Shown: positions 4,701 to 12,363 of the stretch, piece by piece
Layout: each line of letters starts with the position of its first letter
Numbering within the stretch: the first letter of the stretch is position 1
Source: Alphaproteobacteria bacterium
GTDB taxonomy: Bacteria > Pseudomonadota > Alphaproteobacteria > Caedimonadales > UBA9215
DNA length: 39,671 nt
Assembly (NCBI GenBank): GCA_024280495.1
Contig: JAJRPZ010000052.1
Location: 1-39,671 of the forward strand
Reading direction: 5' to 3'
Made by a program: the position numbers and the translations under genes
Notes under the pieces: generated by a model
What the model was told of the DNA's origin: nothing
The model's input: the letters and a program-made list of their open reading frames with translations, nothing else
Database searches by the model: none

Positions 4701-5666
4701 TTATTTTCCCCCAGGAGCATGGGCATTTAATACCGCAAGATAACGCTCTGCATCAAGGGCAGCCATACAGCCAAAACCAGCTGCCACAATGGCTTGACGG
4801 TAAGTTTTATCCTGAACATCCCCTGCTGCGAAAACACCAGGGATATTTGTATTTGCCGTGCCAGGGGCGCAAATAATATAGCCATCATTATCCATATCAA
4901 GTTGGCTTTTGAATATTTTGGTTGCAGGATCATGACCGATGGCAATGAAAACACCCGTTGTATCAAGTTCTGTAATATCGCCTGTTTTAACGTTTTTAGC
5001 TTTTAAGCCAGTGACGGACTTTGGTTGATCGGTACCTAAAACTTCTTCCAAAGTATGATTCCAAAGGACTTCAATTTTAGGATGGGCCAGCAAGCGATCT
5101 TGCATGACTTTTTCAGCACGTAAAGAATCGCGCCTATGGATAAGGGTTACCTTTGAGGCAAAATTTGTGAGGTAAATGGCTTCTTCGACGGCTGTATCTC
5201 CACCACCAATGACGGCAACATGTTGATTTTTGAAAAAGAATCCATCACATGTGGCACAACCAGAAACACCAAAGCCTTGAAATTTGGTTTCGCTTTCAAT
5301 GCCGAGCCATCTAGCTTGGGCCCCCGTTGAAATAATGACGGCATCGGCAGTATAAGTATCCCCCATATCAGTTCTAAGAATAAAGGGACGAACAGAAAAG
5401 TCCACAAATTCGATAAAATCTGAAATAAGGTTTGCTCCAACATTTTTTGCTTGGCTTTGAAATTGCTCCATGAGCCAAGGGCCTTGAATCACATCGGCGA
5501 AACCTGGATAATTTTCAACATCTGTTGTTATGGTGAGTTGTCCGCCAGGCTGATGACCTAAGAATAGAGAGGGTTTTAGGTTCGCCCGTGCTGTGTAAAT
5601 GGCGGCTGAGTAACCAGCGGGTCCTGAACCAATAATTGCAACGGGAAGGTGTTTTGTTTGAGTCAT
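4701..5666 (-). CDS. trxB: Thioredoxin-disulfide reductase
   Basis: IIGSGPAGYSAAIY, GGQLTITTDVENYPGF, CATCDG, GGGDTAVEEA, GVFAAGDV. Start placed at ATG 5666 because of an AAGGAG SD upstream; the ORF extends to 5771. Confidence 0.97.
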   Translation of the reverse strand: MTQTKHLPVAIIGSGPAGYSAAIYTARANLKPSLFLGHQPGGQLTITTDVENYPGFADVIQGPWLMEQFQSQAKNVGANLISDFIEFVDFSVRPFILRTDMGDTYTADAVIISTGAQARWLGIESETKFQGFGVSGCATCDGFFFKNQHVAVIGGGDTAVEEAIYLTNFASKVTLIHRRDSLRAEKVMQDRLLAHPKIEVLWNHTLEEVLGTDQPKSVTGLKAKNVKTGDITELDTTGVFIAIGHDPATKIFKSQLDMDNDGYIICAPGTANTNIPGVFAAGDVQDKTYRQAIVAAGFGCMAALDAERYLAVLNAHAPGGK

Positions 5667-5758
5667 GGCTTGCGCTCCTTTGTCAGCGTAAATAAATGAA
5701 GGGGTAAAGAGACTAAGTGTACAATAGAATAAAAAAATCCTTTGGAATAGGGGGGGGC

Positions 5759-6382
5759 TTAGGAAAACCATGCTTGTATCCTATTGTAAAAAAGGGTGTA
5801 AAAGGCAGTGTTTTTTTTTGGTTTCTGAAAAGGCGTTTCCAATATGCGCTTAATAAGCTTGGTCATTTCAGCTCCTTGCCAGTTTGCAGGTCCTTCAATG
5901 CGGCCAATGAGTTTACCGTTTCTATTGAAAAAAAGGGTGGTAGGGAGGCCCTTGATCGGTGGGCGCTTTGAGCTGGCACGGTGATAAGGTTTGAGGTGGG
6001 TGTAACGTTGGTTGTTGAAATAATTACGCAAGACACCAGGTCTTGGATCATTAAGGGATAGGGAAATAATCTGGATAGGGTTGTTTTTATGTTTTTTAGC
6101 TAATAATTCTAAAGATTTTAGTTCTTTGATACAGCTGCGACAAGAGGTTGCCCAGAGGTGTAGAATTGTAATTTTTTCATTTGAAATAATATCTTGAAAA
6201 GATATTTTTCTGGGGGATTTTATCCAGGGTTGATCCTCTTGAAAGGTGAAATTGCGTATTTCTTCTTGGGCAATAATTGTATATTTTTGTGGGAGGGCAA
6301 GGGCGTTATTGGGGAGGGCAGTATACCAAAAGAAAAAAAACAATGGAAATGCGCGATGTATCTGTCTCATAGGTATGTTCAA
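5759..6382 (-). CDS. tlpA: TlpA/ResA-family thiol-disulfide oxidoreductase
   Basis: N-terminal hydrophobic segment; LHLWATSCRSCIKE (CxxC); GLPTTLFFNRNGKLIGRIEGPANW. Confidence 0.8.
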   Translation of the reverse strand: MNIPMRQIHRAFPLFFFFWYTALPNNALALPQKYTIIAQEEIRNFTFQEDQPWIKSPRKISFQDIISNEKITILHLWATSCRSCIKELKSLELLAKKHKNNPIQIISLSLNDPRPGVLRNYFNNQRYTHLKPYHRASSKRPPIKGLPTTLFFNRNGKLIGRIEGPANWQGAEMTKLIKRILETPFQKPKKNTAFYTLFYNRIQAWFS

Positions 6383-6634: not shown

Positions 6635-7260
6635 ATGGCTTTACCTACTATTCATCACCATTTAGGAGATTTACCTGAAGGGATACTATTTCCAAATGGC
6701 GTCGCCATTGATACAGAAGCCATGGGGCTGAATCCTCATCGAGACCGTTTGTGTGTTGTACAGCTTTCTGGTGGTGATAATATGGCTCATGTCGTGCAGG
6801 TTAATTTGGATCATAACTATGATTGTCCTAATTTGAAAAAAATCTTAAACGATAATAACGTTCAAAAAATTTATCATTATGGTCGCTTTGATATTGCCAT
6901 TTTGTACCAATACTTGGGGATCTTAACTACCAATGTTTTTTGTACTAAAATTGCCGCAAAGCTCGTGCGGACTTACACGTCAAGGCATGGTCTTAAGAAT
7001 CTTTGCAGTGAAATGCTCTCTGTCGAACTCTCAAAACAATCTCAAACATCAGATTGGGGAAGTAAAACCCTGACAAAAGAACAGCTGGCCTATGCTGCCA
7101 GTGATGTTTTGTATTTGCATAAGTTAAAAGAACAATTTGATGACGTTTTGATCCGTGAAGGACGTGTGGATTTGGCAAAACGTTGTTTTGATTTTTGCCA
7201 ACGGTGGCTCAATTGGACTTGTTGGGGTATGAAGATTTGTCTCTTTTTAATCATAAATAA
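6635..7260 (+). CDS. rnd: Ribonuclease D-like DEDD 3'-5' exonuclease, with an apparent 1-nt frameshift at T-run 7192-7196
   Basis: AIDTEAMGL, RDRLCVVQLS, HYGRFDI, CTKIAAKL, QTSDWG, YAASDV. Adding one T restores CFDFLPTVAQLDLLGYEDLSLFNHK* ending at 7260. Confidence 0.88.
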
Positions 7261-7262
7261 TA

Positions 7263-8351
7263 ATGAATCAGAAATTGGGTCTAGAAAAAGAGATGGGCTT
7301 GAAAAATAGTACTAACTCCCATGAAATCAACTCTCAAAAAATTTTGAAATTGCCTATGACTAAAAAACAAACAAAAGCTTTCTTAGAAAAAGCACAAAAT
7401 ACACTGTTAATTGAGGCAGGGGCTTTAACGTCCTTAGCTTCTGCTATTATGCTTGATTTATCGGAGCCTTTTGAAAAAGCGGTGGAAGCTTTATATGCAA
7501 CCAAAGGTCGTGTTGTGATTACGGGTATGGGGAAAAGCGGTCATATTGGCAATAAAATTGCGGCGACCCTATCCTCCACTGGAACGCCAAGCTTCTTTGT
7601 ACACCCAGCAGAAGCAAGCCACGGTGACCTTGGTATGATTACGCCACAGGATACGATTATTGCCATGTCTAACTCTGGTGAAACCACCGAACTTTCTGAT
7701 ATTATGGGGTATGCAAAGCGTTATCATATGCCGTTAATTTCTTTCACGTCAAACCCTAACTCTACATTGGCGACTTTGGCTGATATTTCTTTGGTGTTAC
7801 CTAAACACAAAGAAGCCTGTCCCCATGGTCTAGCACCGACGACATCATCCACAATGATGATTGCTTTGGGGGATGCTTTGGCCGTGGCCGTTTTGGAGAA
7901 GCGTGGTTTTTCTGCGGCTGATTTTAGTTTGCTCCACCCAGGTGGTAAGCTTGGTCAGCGTTTAACACCTGTTGAGAAATTAATGCATGGAAAAAAAGAC
8001 CTGCCTTTGTTGTTTCCAGAGGCCTCCATGGCTGAGGCTCTGTTACAAATGACGTCAAAAGGTTTTGGGTGTGTTGGTATTTTGGGTGAGGATCAGGACC
8101 TCATTGGTATCATCACCGACGGTGATTTGCGTCGTCATATGGAAGGGGATCTCATGGGGGCCTCTATCAAGGACGTTATGACACCGACACCGAAACTTAT
8201 CAGGCAGTCTCTTTTGGCTCAGGAGGCTTTGACCATGATGAACGACTTTGGGATTACTTGCTTATTTGTGCGGAAATCAGAAAATGAAATGGATCGTGTC
8301 CCCATAGGAATTTTACATGTTCATGATTGCTTACGTGTGGGATTGACTTAA
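7263..8351 (+). CDS. kdsD: D-arabinose-5-phosphate isomerase (KpsF/GutQ family, SIS + CBS domains)
   Basis: GMGKSGHIG, SSTGTPSFFVHPAEASHGDLG, EACPHGLAPTTS, GDALA, HPGGKLG, TDGDLRR; true start may be a downstream Met. Confidence 0.95.
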   Translation: MNQKLGLEKEMGLKNSTNSHEINSQKILKLPMTKKQTKAFLEKAQNTLLIEAGALTSLASAIMLDLSEPFEKAVEALYATKGRVVITGMGKSGHIGNKIAATLSSTGTPSFFVHPAEASHGDLGMITPQDTIIAMSNSGETTELSDIMGYAKRYHMPLISFTSNPNSTLATLADISLVLPKHKEACPHGLAPTTSSTMMIALGDALAVAVLEKRGFSAADFSLLHPGGKLGQRLTPVEKLMHGKKDLPLLFPEASMAEALLQMTSKGFGCVGILGEDQDLIGIITDGDLRRHMEGDLMGASIKDVMTPTPKLIRQSLLAQEALTMMNDFGITCLFVRKSENEMDRVPIGILHVHDCLRVGLT

Positions 8352-8373: not shown

Positions 8374-9765
8374 ATGACTTTGATTGATACGTCTTCTTTG
8401 AAAACAAAAAAAAGTCTCTCCAATGATGCTTTGCGTAAAATGAAACGTCATTCTATACGTGTGAAAAATCTTAGACGTGTCTTGCCTGCACTTTCTATTT
8501 TTCTCATTTTAGGTGTTATTCTCTGGATTAACTTGGATTCTTTTTTAGAAGAAAAAATTGAGGGTATTCCACAGACTGTTAAAAGAATAAGCGTTCTAAA
8601 CAAAGTAAAAAAACCACGTTTTCATATGACCGATAATGACGGAAATCCCATCCGCATTCAGGCAAAGTCTGGCACACAAAAAAGTGACACAAAGACTCAT
8701 CTGGTTGCGCCATCTGCTGATTTTGTTGGACCAGATGGCGAACAAATAACCTTAACGGCTAATAAGGCTTTTATTGATCAAGAAACTCAGAAGTTTGTTT
8801 ATGTGGGGGATGTGCGCTTTATTTCTGATCAAGGGTCTAATAAGGGTTTTGATGTACGAACAGACAAGATTACTGTGAATTTAAAAACTAAAAATATTTC
8901 AAGTGAGACACCGGTTATTGCTTTAGTATCCATGGGGCGCTTGACGTCGCCACAGGGTTTTTTCTTTAAGGGAAAGGATCAAGAATTAACGTTTATTGGT
9001 GAAACCCGCCTAATTATCTCCCGAGAAAAATATATTGAAACAGAAATTGTTGCTCAGGATGGCATTATTTGTCAGCTCAAGGATAAAATATGCAGGGCTA
9101 AGGGAGGGGTTGTGACCATCAGAAAATCACCAGGTGGCAGAACTAAAATGACCAGTGATTTTTTGCAGGCCTCTTTTAGTAAAGAATCTGGCACAACCGT
9201 ATTGGAAAATCTTATAGCAGAAAAAAATGTGAAAATAATACATGGAAAATTGGGTTTTAAAGCAGTGTCACAGTTTGCTCGTTATAATGTAGCCGAAGGA
9301 GGGACTCTTTTATTAACGGGAAAACCTATTTTGTCTCAAGGTGAAAATGTCCTTTATGTTGGGCGAGAACTCGTTATTAATGAACGGAATCTCACGGCAA
9401 AAACAAAAGGGCGTTCAACCCTCAAAATTATAGATAAATTATTGCAAGCCGATCACATGACTCTTTTTTTTAAAAAGAATTTGGAGGGACGTTTGAAAAT
9501 GGATCATTTGACAGTAAATAGCAATGTAAAACTTTCGACTCCCCATGAGTTTGTCACTGCCCAAAAAGGTGTGTACTATGCAGGCATAAAAGTGGCAGAA
9601 TTATTTGGTAAAGTGCATATTAAGCGAGACATCGGAATCGTTCAAGGTCAATATGCACGATTTGATATGGTCACTGGAGAGAGCCAATTGAAAAGCACCG
9701 TGAAAAAGACAGGGGTGAAAATGCCCCTTGATGAAAGAGTACATTTGGTTTTAGAGCCTTTATAG
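8374..9765 (+). CDS. Fused LPS export protein: LptC (TM + beta-jellyroll) followed by two LptA/OstA-like repeats
   Basis: N-terminus RHSIRVKNLRRVLP-TM...PRFHMTDNDGNP is LptC-like. C-terminal half has LptA-like strands (LIAEKNVKI, ARYN, LLLTGKPILSQGEN, AQKGVYY, AELFGKVHIKR, FDMVTG, RVHLVLEP). Lies between kdsD and lptB. Confidence 0.8.
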   Translation: MTLIDTSSLKTKKSLSNDALRKMKRHSIRVKNLRRVLPALSIFLILGVILWINLDSFLEEKIEGIPQTVKRISVLNKVKKPRFHMTDNDGNPIRIQAKSGTQKSDTKTHLVAPSADFVGPDGEQITLTANKAFIDQETQKFVYVGDVRFISDQGSNKGFDVRTDKITVNLKTKNISSETPVIALVSMGRLTSPQGFFFKGKDQELTFIGETRLIISREKYIETEIVAQDGIICQLKDKICRAKGGVVTIRKSPGGRTKMTSDFLQASFSKESGTTVLENLIAEKNVKIIHGKLGFKAVSQFARYNVAEGGTLLLTGKPILSQGENVLYVGRELVINERNLTAKTKGRSTLKIIDKLLQADHMTLFFKKNLEGRLKMDHLTVNSNVKLSTPHEFVTAQKGVYYAGIKVAELFGKVHIKRDIGIVQGQYARFDMVTGESQLKSTVKKTGVKMPLDERVHLVLEPL

Positions 9766-9896: not shown

Positions 9897-10640
9897 ATGA
9901 AGAAAAAAATGGATTTTGATACAACCGTTGGGCTGACCGTTATAGGGGCAGCTAAAACCTATGGTAATAAACCAGTGGTTCGTAATATTAATTTGCATAT
10001 CCAGCGCGGTGAAGCCGTGGGTCTTTTGGGACCTAATGGTGCTGGAAAAACCACAACTTTTTCTATGATATCTGGTCTTATTTCGCCAACTCAAGGGCGT
10101 ATTTATTTGGATAATATGGATATTACCGATTTGCCCATGTATCGTCGAGCAAGGCTTGGTATTGGATATTTACCCCAAGAATCGTCTATTTTTAGAGGGA
10201 TGACCGTTGAAGAAAATTTAAGGGCTGTTCTTGAAATTTATGAGCCTGACCCCACAACCCGAGAAGACCGTCTTGAAAACCTTTTAGGTGAATTTTTGAT
10301 TGCGCATTTAAGATCTTCGCCAGCTATGACCTTGTCTGGAGGTGAACGCCGACGTGTTGAAATCGCAAGGGCTCTTGCAAGCCAACCTCATTTTATTTTA
10401 TTGGATGAACCTTTGGCGGGTATTGATCCCATTGCAGTCAAAGATATTCGTGAAATGATTTCACATCTTAAAGAACGTGATATAGGTGTGTTGATCACTG
10501 ATCATAACGTGCGTGAAACCCTTTCCATTGTGGATCGTGCATATATCATTAGCGAAGGTCAGGTTCTCATGGAAGGCACACCAGGGGACGTTATTGCCGA
10601 TGAAAATGTGAAACGCGTTTATTTAGGCGACACTTTTTAA
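9897..10640 (+). CDS. lptB: LPS export ABC transporter ATP-binding protein
   Basis: [71 protein letters not shown]. Confidence 0.97.
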
Positions 10641-10671: not shown

Positions 10672-12363
10672 TCACTGGTTTACGGTGAAAGCGACGGCTT
10701 CTTCTAATTTTAGTTGATTGGTGATGTCATGATAGCTCATGAGATTAGAGCCATCGGGGAGGGGGATGTAAGAAAATTCAATGATTTTTCCGTCACTGCG
10801 GTGGATCTTTCGTGTCTTTTGTTGACGCTCATTTACTAATCCCATGACACGGTTTTTATATTCTTCCCAGTTATTAGTAGGAGAAATAAGATGTCGAACA
10901 TGCTCTGCCAAAGTAGAAATATGCTCGCCGCGCTTCATGATATCTTTAGGAATATTCCAAATATCGGAGAATGCTTGATTAGAGAATTGGAGACGATTAT
11001 CGCTACCAAAAACAGCGACGCCTTCAAAAAGATTGTCTAAGGTAGCACGATGCACGGCTAATTGAGTGTTGTATTTTGCTTCAAGTTTAAGGCGATCGGT
11101 GAGGTCTTCAAAAATATAAAAACTCCCTCCTCTGGGGTGGGGAGACGCAATGATTCTCATGGCACGACCATCGGGTAAATGATTAAGGGTTTCGTGGGGA
11201 GTTGTAATGTTTTTGACGAGGTTAATTTGTTCTTTTTTATAAGCATTGTAGTCTGCGTATTCTGTTAAAAGACGACGGCTACGTAAATTATCTAAAACTT
11301 CACCAAGGTGAGGGGCAGATAATAGCCAGTTTTCGTCAAAATCAAAAGTTCGAGCATAGGATTTATTGTAGTAGGACAATTTTTGTTCTTCATCATAAAT
11401 CGCAACCCCCGCAGAGAGAGATTCTAGAACTTCTCGATAAGAAAAAAGATGTTGACTTAATAGTTTTTCTTTTTCATGTAGGTTTGTTAAATCTTCACCG
11501 TAACCTAATGTGACTCTGCCTGGGAATGGAATTTCTTTAAAATGAAAAAGGTGTCGAGTTCCCTCAAAAACAACGGCTTTAGGTTGATTATCCCCCAAAA
11601 AAATACGATTTAAGGTGGTAAAGGTGAGGGGGGTATCTGAGTAGGAAGCACTTTTGAAGTTTCTTTGTTCAAAGAGTCTAGAACAGGCTGGATTGCAATA
11701 TAAAAGTTCGTGGTTCTCGCGAATCCAGAGAGGCCATGGAAGGTGATCAAAGGCTTGTTTATAAAGCTTAATAGAACTTGAAATCATTTTAGCTTCAAGT
11801 CGTAATGCCGCTTTTTCCGTTTCTTGCTTAGTTGTATCGTGGAGCATGATCACGGCCCACTTGCTGTTTCCTCTAAATGCATGGGCATTCAGTCGATAGG
11901 AATGATGCCCCTTTTTTGTGGTAAGAGTTAAACTAATGGGGCGTTTTTGTTGCTTTAAAGATTGGAAGGCAAAGCGAATTCCCCCATGCTCTGCTTCTTC
12001 AAAATGATTCATAAATTCATTGAAAGTTTTAAAACTAAGCTCCCGGAATTTAAGAATTTCCTTACGTTTAGTAAGATAAGAGAAAACTTTCTTTTCTTGG
12101 TGGAAAAAAGTTATAAAAACATTGCCTCGTTTGAGAGTGCGTAGGAGCTTTTTGTAAATAAAATTTGAATACAAAATATATCCTAGAAGTCCTAAGATCG
12201 TGATGCTTAAAAAACTAATGAGCATAAGGTGAGGTGGAAAGTCAAAGTAAGTCGAGAAAAACGCTGGCATTTTATACGAAGCCTTCCTGTTGTGGTCTGT
12301 TTTCCATGACTCTTTCTTAAGGGGACGTAATGGATTTGATTGATTATAGAATACATTATACAA
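10672..12363 (-). CDS. divL: Membrane-anchored multi-PAS protein, DivL-like, lacking the histidine-kinase domain
   Basis: N-terminal TM; PWPLWIR..LLYCNPA; TLDNLFEGVAVFGSDNRLQFSNQAF; PLPDGSNLMSYHDIT; ends before any DHp/CA domain. Start may be Met at 12270. Confidence 0.65.
   Translation of the reverse strand: MYNVFYNQSNPLRPLKKESWKTDHNRKASYKMPAFFSTYFDFPPHLMLISFLSITILGLLGYILYSNFIYKKLLRTLKRGNVFITFFHQEKKVFSYLTKRKEILKFRELSFKTFNEFMNHFEEAEHGGIRFAFQSLKQQKRPISLTLTTKKGHHSYRLNAHAFRGNSKWAVIMLHDTTKQETEKAALRLEAKMISSSIKLYKQAFDHLPWPLWIRENHELLYCNPACSRLFEQRNFKSASYSDTPLTFTTLNRIFLGDNQPKAVVFEGTRHLFHFKEIPFPGRVTLGYGEDLTNLHEKEKLLSQHLFSYREVLESLSAGVAIYDEEQKLSYYNKSYARTFDFDENWLLSAPHLGEVLDNLRSRRLLTEYADYNAYKKEQINLVKNITTPHETLNHLPDGRAMRIIASPHPRGGSFYIFEDLTDRLKLEAKYNTQLAVHRATLDNLFEGVAVFGSDNRLQFSNQAFSDIWNIPKDIMKRGEHISTLAEHVRHLISPTNNWEEYKNRVMGLVNERQQKTRKIHRSDGKIIEFSYIPLPDGSNLMSYHDITNQLKLEEAVAFTVNQ

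Follow-up and report, generated by a model that had tools for sequence, protein, structure and literature searches.

The 39,671-nt stretch of DNA from an uncultured alphaproteobacterium considered here (contig JAJRPZ010000052.1 of genome G000, at its full length the window) raises the question of whether LptC and LptA, which are separate proteins in the lipopolysaccharide (LPS) bridge of the Escherichia coli type, can be encoded in nature as one polypeptide. A preliminary description of the window reported a single uninterrupted open reading frame (ORF) of 463 residues between kdsD and lptB, and this frame was confirmed at 8374..9765 on the + strand. Our analysis makes it very likely that the ORF encodes a real, probably functional, naturally fused LptC-LptA protein (P0001), formed by in-frame loss of the sequence that separates the two genes in relatives. 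The preliminary description argued from the missing LptA signal peptide that this is a real fusion rather than a lost stop codon. The junction bears this out because no signal-peptide sequence remains and just 8 residues lie between the two homology blocks.

Composition and predicted fold of the fused protein

The features of the locus are listed below by window position and strand.

7263..8351 (+): kdsD (arabinose-5-phosphate isomerase type), the upstream neighbor; Pfam SIS 94.3 bits and CBS 54.9 bits; same slot in relatives
8374..9765 (+): fused lptC-lptA ORF (P0001), 463 residues plus stop; single open frame
8467..8553 (+): hydrophobic core of the putative signal-anchor helix, residues 32–60; Kyte-Doolittle hydropathy, AlphaFold2 helix at residues 17–58, aligns with the transmembrane helix of stand-alone LptC
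8590..9018 (+): LptC β-jellyroll, residues 73–215; PF06835, TIGR04409, LptC structure matches, 40% identity to the LptC of a congener
9019..9042 (+): fusion junction, residues 216–223 (SREKYIET); BLASTP against split congener LptC and LptA
9043..9336 (+): first, divergent OstA-type module, residues 224–321, with C233 and C240; homology with stand-alone LptAs in their N-terminal half
9337..9762 (+): second, canonical LptA module, residues 322–463, with the C-terminal edge …RVHLVLEPL; PF03968 on residues 354–435, LptH/LptA structure matches
9897..10640 (+): lptB (ATP-binding cassette ATPase), the downstream neighbor; ABC_tran 131 bits; same slot after fused or split genes in relatives

The N-terminal part of P0001 lies above the cut-offs of Pfam LptC (PF06835, residues 59–212, 63.3 bits against 21) and of the NCBIfam LptC equivalog TIGR04409 (68.2 bits against 38), and it has the single N-terminal transmembrane helix, the jellyroll, and the slot between kdsD and lptA/lptB that mark an LptC. 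A stand-alone LptC of about 190–250 residues ends after its jellyroll, but the frame of P0001 continues for 248 residues into LptA. This second part matches the OstA-type family LptD_N/OstA (PF03968, residues 354–435, 33.5 bits against 20.4) and solved LptA structures, such that both of the families named in the preliminary description for a Pfam check score above cut-off. What P0001 does not have is the signal peptide that an LptA carries of its own, as the junction contains no start and no hydrophobic segment. Windows of 19 residues with a Kyte-Doolittle value above 1.6 start only at residues 32–42, giving one hydrophobic segment in the protein; the best 11-residue window in residues 190–260 reaches 1.35, and no second hydrophobic segment is present at the junction. 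With one hydrophobic segment and 8 linker residues, the initial observation that no LptA signal peptide, stop, or restart interrupts the junction holds. The K/R-rich tail preceding the helix suggests that the N terminus of the anchor is cytoplasmic. A single-chain LptC-LptA architecture is defined here, there being no curated family for it, and P0001 shows all of its elements, including the kdsD-lptB slot and no separate lptA found.

At the G+C fraction (GC) of the ORF (0.376), the probability of remaining open by chance is 8.5e-9 for the 243 codons of the LptA part and 4.2e-16 for all 463 codons, and the five other frames of the LptA part contain 9–21 stops each. Composition is uniform, with a GC of 0.376 for the fused ORF and 0.395 for the window. 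Between positions 7000 and 10800, 13 promoter-like sites were counted where 9.1±2.6 were expected and 7 terminator-like sites where 2.9±2.0 were expected, none of the latter on the + strand at the junction; the scan of this interval gave no sign of a transcription unit inside the fused ORF. Conservation relative to the congener G002 is similar in the two halves (36% in the LptA part and 40% in the LptC part), C233 and C240 are invariant among relatives (alignments A4 and A5), and the C-terminal RV..L.P edge is kept (alignment A2). The open frame, the like conservation of both halves, and the retained Cys pair and C-terminal motif point to purifying selection on the fused frame.

An AlphaFold2 model of P0001 was calculated from an alignment of 101 rows (15 fused anchors, 26 ORFs of the order, and 60 representatives) that is ~55 rows deep throughout. 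The mean predicted local distance difference test score (pLDDT) is 90.5, and the predicted template modeling score is 0.78. The model consists of one helix (residues 17–58) followed by 38 strands (residues 77–460) without a break. At the junction, a strand (residues 211–215) leads through a loop (residues 216–220) into the next strand (residues 221–227), with block pLDDT values of 86 and 94, and the first LptA module is built entirely of β-strands with high pLDDT. The specific Foldseek matches of the model are LptC, LptA, and the LptD N-domain. LptC (4b54) matches with a template modeling score of 0.84 and a root mean square deviation (rmsd) of 2.0, and the LptC chains of LptB2FGC match by a second aligner on residues 73–278 (6mit_C, Z 14.8) and 73–207 (9doq_C). 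Complete LptH (4uu4; Z 17.0, rmsd 2.6, 130 residues aligned) and complete LptA (2r1a_C; Z 17.0, rmsd 2.1, 125 residues aligned) both match on model residues 322–462 only, whereas LptD N-domains map to about residues 80–280. About 100 jellyroll residues (221–321) therefore lie beyond canonical LptA. The model, like the continuous β-jellyroll of about three units anticipated in the preliminary description, portrays the chain as one continuous jellyroll that would comprise LptC (residues 73–215), an extra module (residues 221–321), and LptA (residues 322–462). From strand geometry (38 strands, two sheets, about 4.8 Å per strand), we estimate the length of the fused chain at roughly 90 Å.

The preliminary description spoke of two LptA repeats. 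Two modules are indeed present, and their boundaries match the structure; the idea of an LptC-LptA-LptA fusion, however, did not stand. Residues 221–462 of P0001 form a single unbroken alignment to one LptA gene of relatives. The stand-alone LptAs P0003 and that of G002 have two LptD_N stretches each, and the stretch at residues 28–146 of P0003 covers the region of the window's first module. The 235-residue LptA of genus g4 has one LptD_N stretch and is without the part that matches residues 253–344 of P0001, and the 384-residue LptA of G018 has three stretches. Judged by these alignments, the apparent LptA-LptA unit is one ancestral two-module LptA and not two fused LptAs, and the number of modules is unchanged relative to the split relatives (1 + 2), the two LptA modules having been inherited together.

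Stand-alone LptAs of the order fall into size classes of about 233–249 residues with one OstA stretch, about 280–310 with two, and 384 with three (read at loci L006-L018, including L015 of G018, and at L020, L022, and L023 of genus g4). The proteins of about 233–249 residues are without the part matching residues 253–344 of the window protein. Within the order, the LptA jellyroll seems to lengthen and shorten through the gain or loss of internal modules.

Origin of the junction and alternative explanations

All other genomes of the order (22/22) have split genes, with the LptC-part match in frames of 211–250 residues. The survey of relatives proposed at the outset thus had a divided outcome, for the fusion is not shared within the order but recurs in families f42 and f111 and in metagenomes. 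The four same-genus genomes (G001-G004) and one same-family genome (G005) encode an LptC of 211–217 residues and an LptA of 255–289 residues with a clear signal peptide, and in G001-G003 the stop of lptC and the ATG of lptA share one base. The gene order kdsD-lptC-lptA-lptB with a signal-peptide LptA, given in the preliminary description as the usual state, was seen both in these family genomes and in loci across the class. G005 gives no Pfam LptC match at E ≤ 0.001, yet its 211-residue LptC ORF is present. The fusion is specific to one lineage within the order and arose after that lineage had diverged from its split relatives. G000 is the smallest genome of the genus (1.14 Mb in 99 contigs at 89% completeness versus 1.5–1.8 Mb).

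In family f2 of the same order (G006, G009, G012, G014, and G016), lptC is found on another contig than lptA or at a long distance from it on the same contig. Linkage of the two genes is thus not universal, even among close relatives.

The junction itself can be placed by comparison with the congener G002. BLASTP aligns residues 14–215 of P0001 to residues 9–206 of the 217-residue LptC (40% identity) and residues 224–462 to residues 31–269 of the 283-residue LptA (36% identity). The border lies at nt 9019–9042, in keeping with the first estimate that the LptC-like transmembrane helix and jellyroll end near nt 9020–9030. In place of the 8 residues SREKYIET, the split congener has an 11-residue LptC tail, a stop, and 30 N-terminal LptA residues that include the signal peptide, and no remnant of a signal peptide is left between the homology blocks of P0001. 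A single-base error could therefore not yield a working split pair, as with a stop at the junction LptA would remain in the cytoplasm.

The junction is best read as an in-frame deletion of about 100 nt. The ancestral lptC and lptA would have been adjacent and translationally coupled, as the 1-nt stop/ATG overlap in congeners suggests, and the ~100 nt lost would have run from the C-terminal tail of LptC across the stop codon and the signal peptide of LptA into its first mature residues. The last LptC β-strand would thereby have been joined in frame to the first LptA β-strand. Such a fusion could be tolerated because the ends of LptC and LptA already touch in the assembled bridge. The cause was probably deletion bias in a shrinking genome, and the small genome sizes (0.9–2.0 Mb) across G000, family f42, and family f111 would fit such an origin.

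The remainder of the pathway is found in G000. LptF, LptG, and LptD are encoded together on contig C51, LpxC and a Kdo transferase are present, and lptB adjoins the fused gene. Three queries (PF03968, TIGR03002, and the LptA protein of G002) returned the fused ORF and LptD only, and the search for a separate lptA called for in the preliminary description accordingly found none in this 89%-complete genome.

Several points weigh against reading P0001 as a complete, natural bridge protein. The junction rests on one assembly; the P0001 cluster has 1 member on 1 contig, and two metagenome scans, one with P0001 and one with alignment A5 as the query, found no relative. The window's first LptA module scanned alone against Pfam matches 0 families. 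P0001 scores 42.1 bits with the LptA equivalog TIGR03002, below the cut-off of 71.7, for which it should be said that the model is narrow and that 1/10 matches in control genomes pass its cut-off. The unlinked lptC and lptA of family f2 bear on the search for a second LptA, and a separate lptA could lie in the missing 11% of G000. Finally, the function of P0001, the topology of its export, and its docking to LptF and LptD are predictions.

Could the fusion be an artefact of assembly or binning, with separate lptC and lptA in reality and ~100 nt lost, or two strains joined, in the contig? The genome is a draft of 99 contigs, the exact protein occurs on one contig only, and every other genome of the order is split, all of which would suit this explanation. 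The loss, however, keeps the frame, and what it takes away is precisely the tail of LptC, the stop, and the signal peptide, with both homology blocks left intact, whereas a random collapse stays in frame 1 time in 3 and has no reason to strike these borders. Moreover, composition is uniform, and the same architecture has been assembled independently many times in other lineages, the P0020 cluster being one example. An artefact is in our judgment very unlikely. Slightly less probable again is that the deletion inactivated LptA or the whole bridge and that the fused ORF is a young pseudogene or serves as LptC only. The 243 LptA codons that remain open, the retained invariant Cys pair and C-terminal docking motif, and a fold that is confident throughout all argue against decay, even though G000 is the smallest genome of its genus, lies on a long branch (1.28) in the LptA tree, and has a first LptA module too divergent for Pfam. 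The other Lpt and LPS genes that were looked for are all intact and would be useless without LptA, for which no replacement was found.

The least probable of the alternatives accepts the fusion as real but makes it only part of the bridge, with one or more free LptA copies from the unassembled 11% extending the chain in the manner of the E. coli oligomer model. The incompleteness of the genome and the unlinked lptA of family f2 leave room for such a gene. In the five other genomes of family f1, however, lptA adjoins lptC; three different queries found no further LptA in G000; and an extra LptA is absent from 5/5 near-complete fused genomes of other families. A natural fusion that supplies the whole LptC-LptA part of the bridge is the reading that we carry forward.

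Single-chain proteins in other lineages

For the class, a profile of the fused form (A2) was run over 401 genomes including G000; 309 matched at E ≤ 1e-25, and the best 150 of 309 were listed. A count of open-frame lengths based on the LptC family over the 401 genomes was dropped, as GC-rich genomes give long stop-free frames. Among the best 150 of 309, full-span stop-free matches were found in G000, in three genomes of family f42 (G060, G235, and G363), and in one of family f111 (G405). Among the matches listed, lptC and lptA share a reading frame and are parted by at least 1 stop in 18/401 genomes; this is the ordinary split state (G408, G181, G062, G211, G174, G370, G301, G304, G220, G148, G100, G109, G162, G128, G392, G140, G270, and G298). 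The eight split loci L029-L036 read kdsD-lptC-lptA-lptB in 7/8 cases, with L035 being without a listed lptB ORF. The unpublished genome G062 belongs to the 18 and contributes locus L031 to the eight; the likewise unpublished G261 is part of the sample only.

In the same-frame split pairs, which are separated by one or a few stops, stop loss alone would give a read-through fusion with an internal signal peptide.

All three genomes of family f42 are fused (3/3). For family f111, the match to the LptC half falls within a frame of 334–583 residues without stops in 61/61 sampled genomes (16 genera), which read out as follows.

Single full-span match: 9 genomes
LptA-half match in a frame of identical length, no stops: 41 genomes
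Stop counted in the second match, identical frame length: 6 genomes
Different frame lengths reported: 1 genome (G289)
First match only: 4 genomes (G426, G432, G436, and G477)

By this readout, fusion is clear-cut in 50/61 genomes (9 + 41) and ambiguous in the remaining 11; none of the 61 shows one frame the size of LptC and another the size of LptA. The fused gene sits between kdsD and lptB in G129 (347 residues), in G464 (569 residues), and in 8/9 further f42 and f111 loci (443–458 residues), of which L025 ends after the fused gene. In all five fused genomes that are 97–100% complete, the only frames above the PF03968 cut-off are the fused gene and an LptD frame of ~1080 residues; in G464, one sub-threshold PF03968 match lies elsewhere.

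The fused chains of f111 fall into at least three length classes (347 residues at L053, 456–458 residues at L037-L042, and 569 residues at L054, with frames of up to 583 residues). The longest (L054 and P0126) have an Ala/Ser/Thr-rich stretch between jellyroll parts.

An exhaustive search of metagenomes, covering 1.84 billion representatives, yielded 806 proteins at E ≤ 0.001, and 17 proteins that span both halves or are long were picked from the best 150 of 806. LptC and an OstA-type family are above cut-off in 17/17, with LptD_N above cut-off in 16/17 and P0064 recognized through OstA_2 only. Several fused clusters recur on independent contigs, and the P0020 cluster has 8 members on contigs of up to 145 kb. 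Proteins 65–98% identical to P0058 occur in metagenome-assembled genomes of Alphaproteobacteria, several of them from animal gut. Where source annotations name the metagenomic fusions at all, the labels are "hypothetical protein," "LptA/OstA family protein," or "LptA."

One protein, P0088 (646 residues), was left out. This GC-rich read-through begins in the C terminus of KdsD and continues into an LptC-like and an LptA-like part, the parts being separated by long stretches rich in Arg, Pro, and Gly; a frame shift or a wrong gene call seems a better account of it than a triple fusion.

The LptA part was placed in a maximum-likelihood tree of 44 rows (P0001 itself, 13 LptAs from the order, 13 fused and 13 split representatives, and 4 LptAs of split class loci), with all other listed matches left out. 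G000 groups with the split LptAs P0003, which has a classic signal peptide, and P0015, which has a hydrophobic N-terminal segment (support 98/98). P0004, a fused fragment, clusters with P0014 and P0022, which are split (96/74), and the other fused forms are scattered among split forms. Because of several long branches and 12 unresolved forks, the number of fusion events is uncertain. On the evidence of the tree, the window fusion is separate in origin from those of f42 and f111, and it is to all appearance one of many independent instances of the same single-chain design. Full-text literature searches, with subscription journals and supplements outside their coverage, turned up engineered constructs and the operon name lptCAB but no account of an LptC-LptA fusion occurring in nature.

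The proposed bridge, related systems, and neighboring genes

How might the fused chain work? We propose that the LptC signal-anchor helix exports the whole periplasmic part of ~400 residues, such that LptA would need no signal peptide of its own. Following the E. coli Lpt model, the chain would take LPS from LptB2FG at the inner membrane via its LptC module, and LPS would slide along the three fused jellyroll modules to the conserved C-terminal edge, which would dock on the N-terminal jellyroll of LptD and hand over the LPS. The LptC-LptA interface would be permanent, with one LptA per transporter, and only the contact with LptD would open and close. Even if the tethered chain could span the periplasm by itself, as the preliminary description supposed, it would still need to dock on LptF at one end and on the N-domain of LptD at the other. 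The continuous sheet at the junction and the conserved C-terminal motif lend only indirect support to the prediction that the LptA moiety binds LptC and LptD and carries LPS.

The window protein shares its locus position, anchor helix, β-jellyroll folds, and module order with E. coli-type LptC and LptA. There, separate proteins are encoded in the order kdsD-(kdsC)-lptC-lptA-lptB, whereas the window encodes one polypeptide without an LptA signal peptide. Its LptA moiety has about 240 residues in two modules, and the whole of a canonical LptA covers only residues 322–462. Unlike free LptA, a fused LptA cannot diffuse, be in excess, or oligomerize freely. Closer to the window protein are the split LptC and LptA of the genus and family (G001-G005; P0003 and P0015), which are homologous over their full length (36–40% identity) and have the same two-module LptA and the same neighbors but keep the 11-residue LptC tail, the 1-nt stop/ATG overlap, and the signal peptide where the window protein has 8 linker residues. 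The fusions of other uncultured Alphaproteobacteria, seen in f42, f111, and the metagenomes (P0016, P0020, P0058, and others), have the same transmembrane helix, LptC, and OstA module(s), no internal signal peptide, and the same place between kdsD and lptB. They are only 20–26% identical to the window protein, have linkers of 0 to about 25 residues, and differ in length (347, 443–458, and 569 residues; stop-free frames of 334–583 residues).

A covalent LptC-LptA link has also been made by design. One report describes an E. coli LptC-LptA fusion that was engineered because free LptA oligomerizes and that stably binds LptB2FG; in nanodiscs in vitro, it gave ATP-dependent cross-links of LPS to LptD (PMC12065857). 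This construct resembles the window protein in its covalent linkage but is man-made and not an evolved gene; it shows that a single-chain design works in principle. In Borrelia burgdorferi, according to a preprint, LptA (BB0465) has an extended jellyroll, and a bridge of LptC, LptA, and the LptD N-domain was modeled at about 185 Å (bioRxiv 10.1101/2022.12.21.521298). That bridge, too, was modeled with a single LptA, but Borrelia keeps LptC, a lipoprotein, apart from LptA. The longer Borrelia LptA indicates that the length of the LptA jellyroll varies between lineages.

The number of LptA copies in the LPS bridge is still loosely described, and a natural fused chain bears on this question. One paper gives both "at least one copy" and "multiple copies" (PMC12498426). 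That the near-complete fused genomes contain no other LptA suggests that one tethered LptA moiety is enough. The bridge itself is reportedly transient, to go by the title of one study. In a fused chain, the gene fixes the number of modules, and only the LptD end can detach. The design also matters for drugs such as thanatin-type peptides, as the LptC-LptA interface at which they are reportedly aimed is fused here. For annotation, the consequence is that single-chain genes go under the names hypothetical or LptA, where they are named. The split close relatives make the evolutionary step readable as a ~100-nt deletion and provide matched constructs for comparison.

A further idea, which we consider possible but rather doubtful, is that single-chain proteins act as genetically encoded rulers, such that each lineage would match its LPS bridge to the width of its periplasm through the number of modules in the chain. 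We take the fused chains of 347, 443–463, and 569 residues to have about 2, 3, and 4 modules. If the idea were true, LPS transport would need neither LptA oligomerization nor opening of the LptC-LptA contact, and the window species with its split sister lineages would be a natural before-and-after pair for examining it.

Among the other genes of the window, an ORF of 563 residues at 10672-12363 (-) matches PAS_7 (115.8 bits in 2 stretches) and other PAS families. At E ≤ 0.001 it shows no output domain of the kinase, GGDEF, or any other type, and its product may be a truncated sensor or one that has no recognizable output. A thioredoxin-reductase-type ORF at 4701-5771 (-) has an N-terminal extension of 43 residues ahead of its Pyr_redox_2 match, hydrophobic over the first ~30, and the kdsD ORF at 7263-8351 (+) has about 40 extra N-terminal residues that overlap the end of an RNase D-like exonuclease ORF (6635-7309). 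The true starts of both ORFs probably lie downstream of the first ATG.

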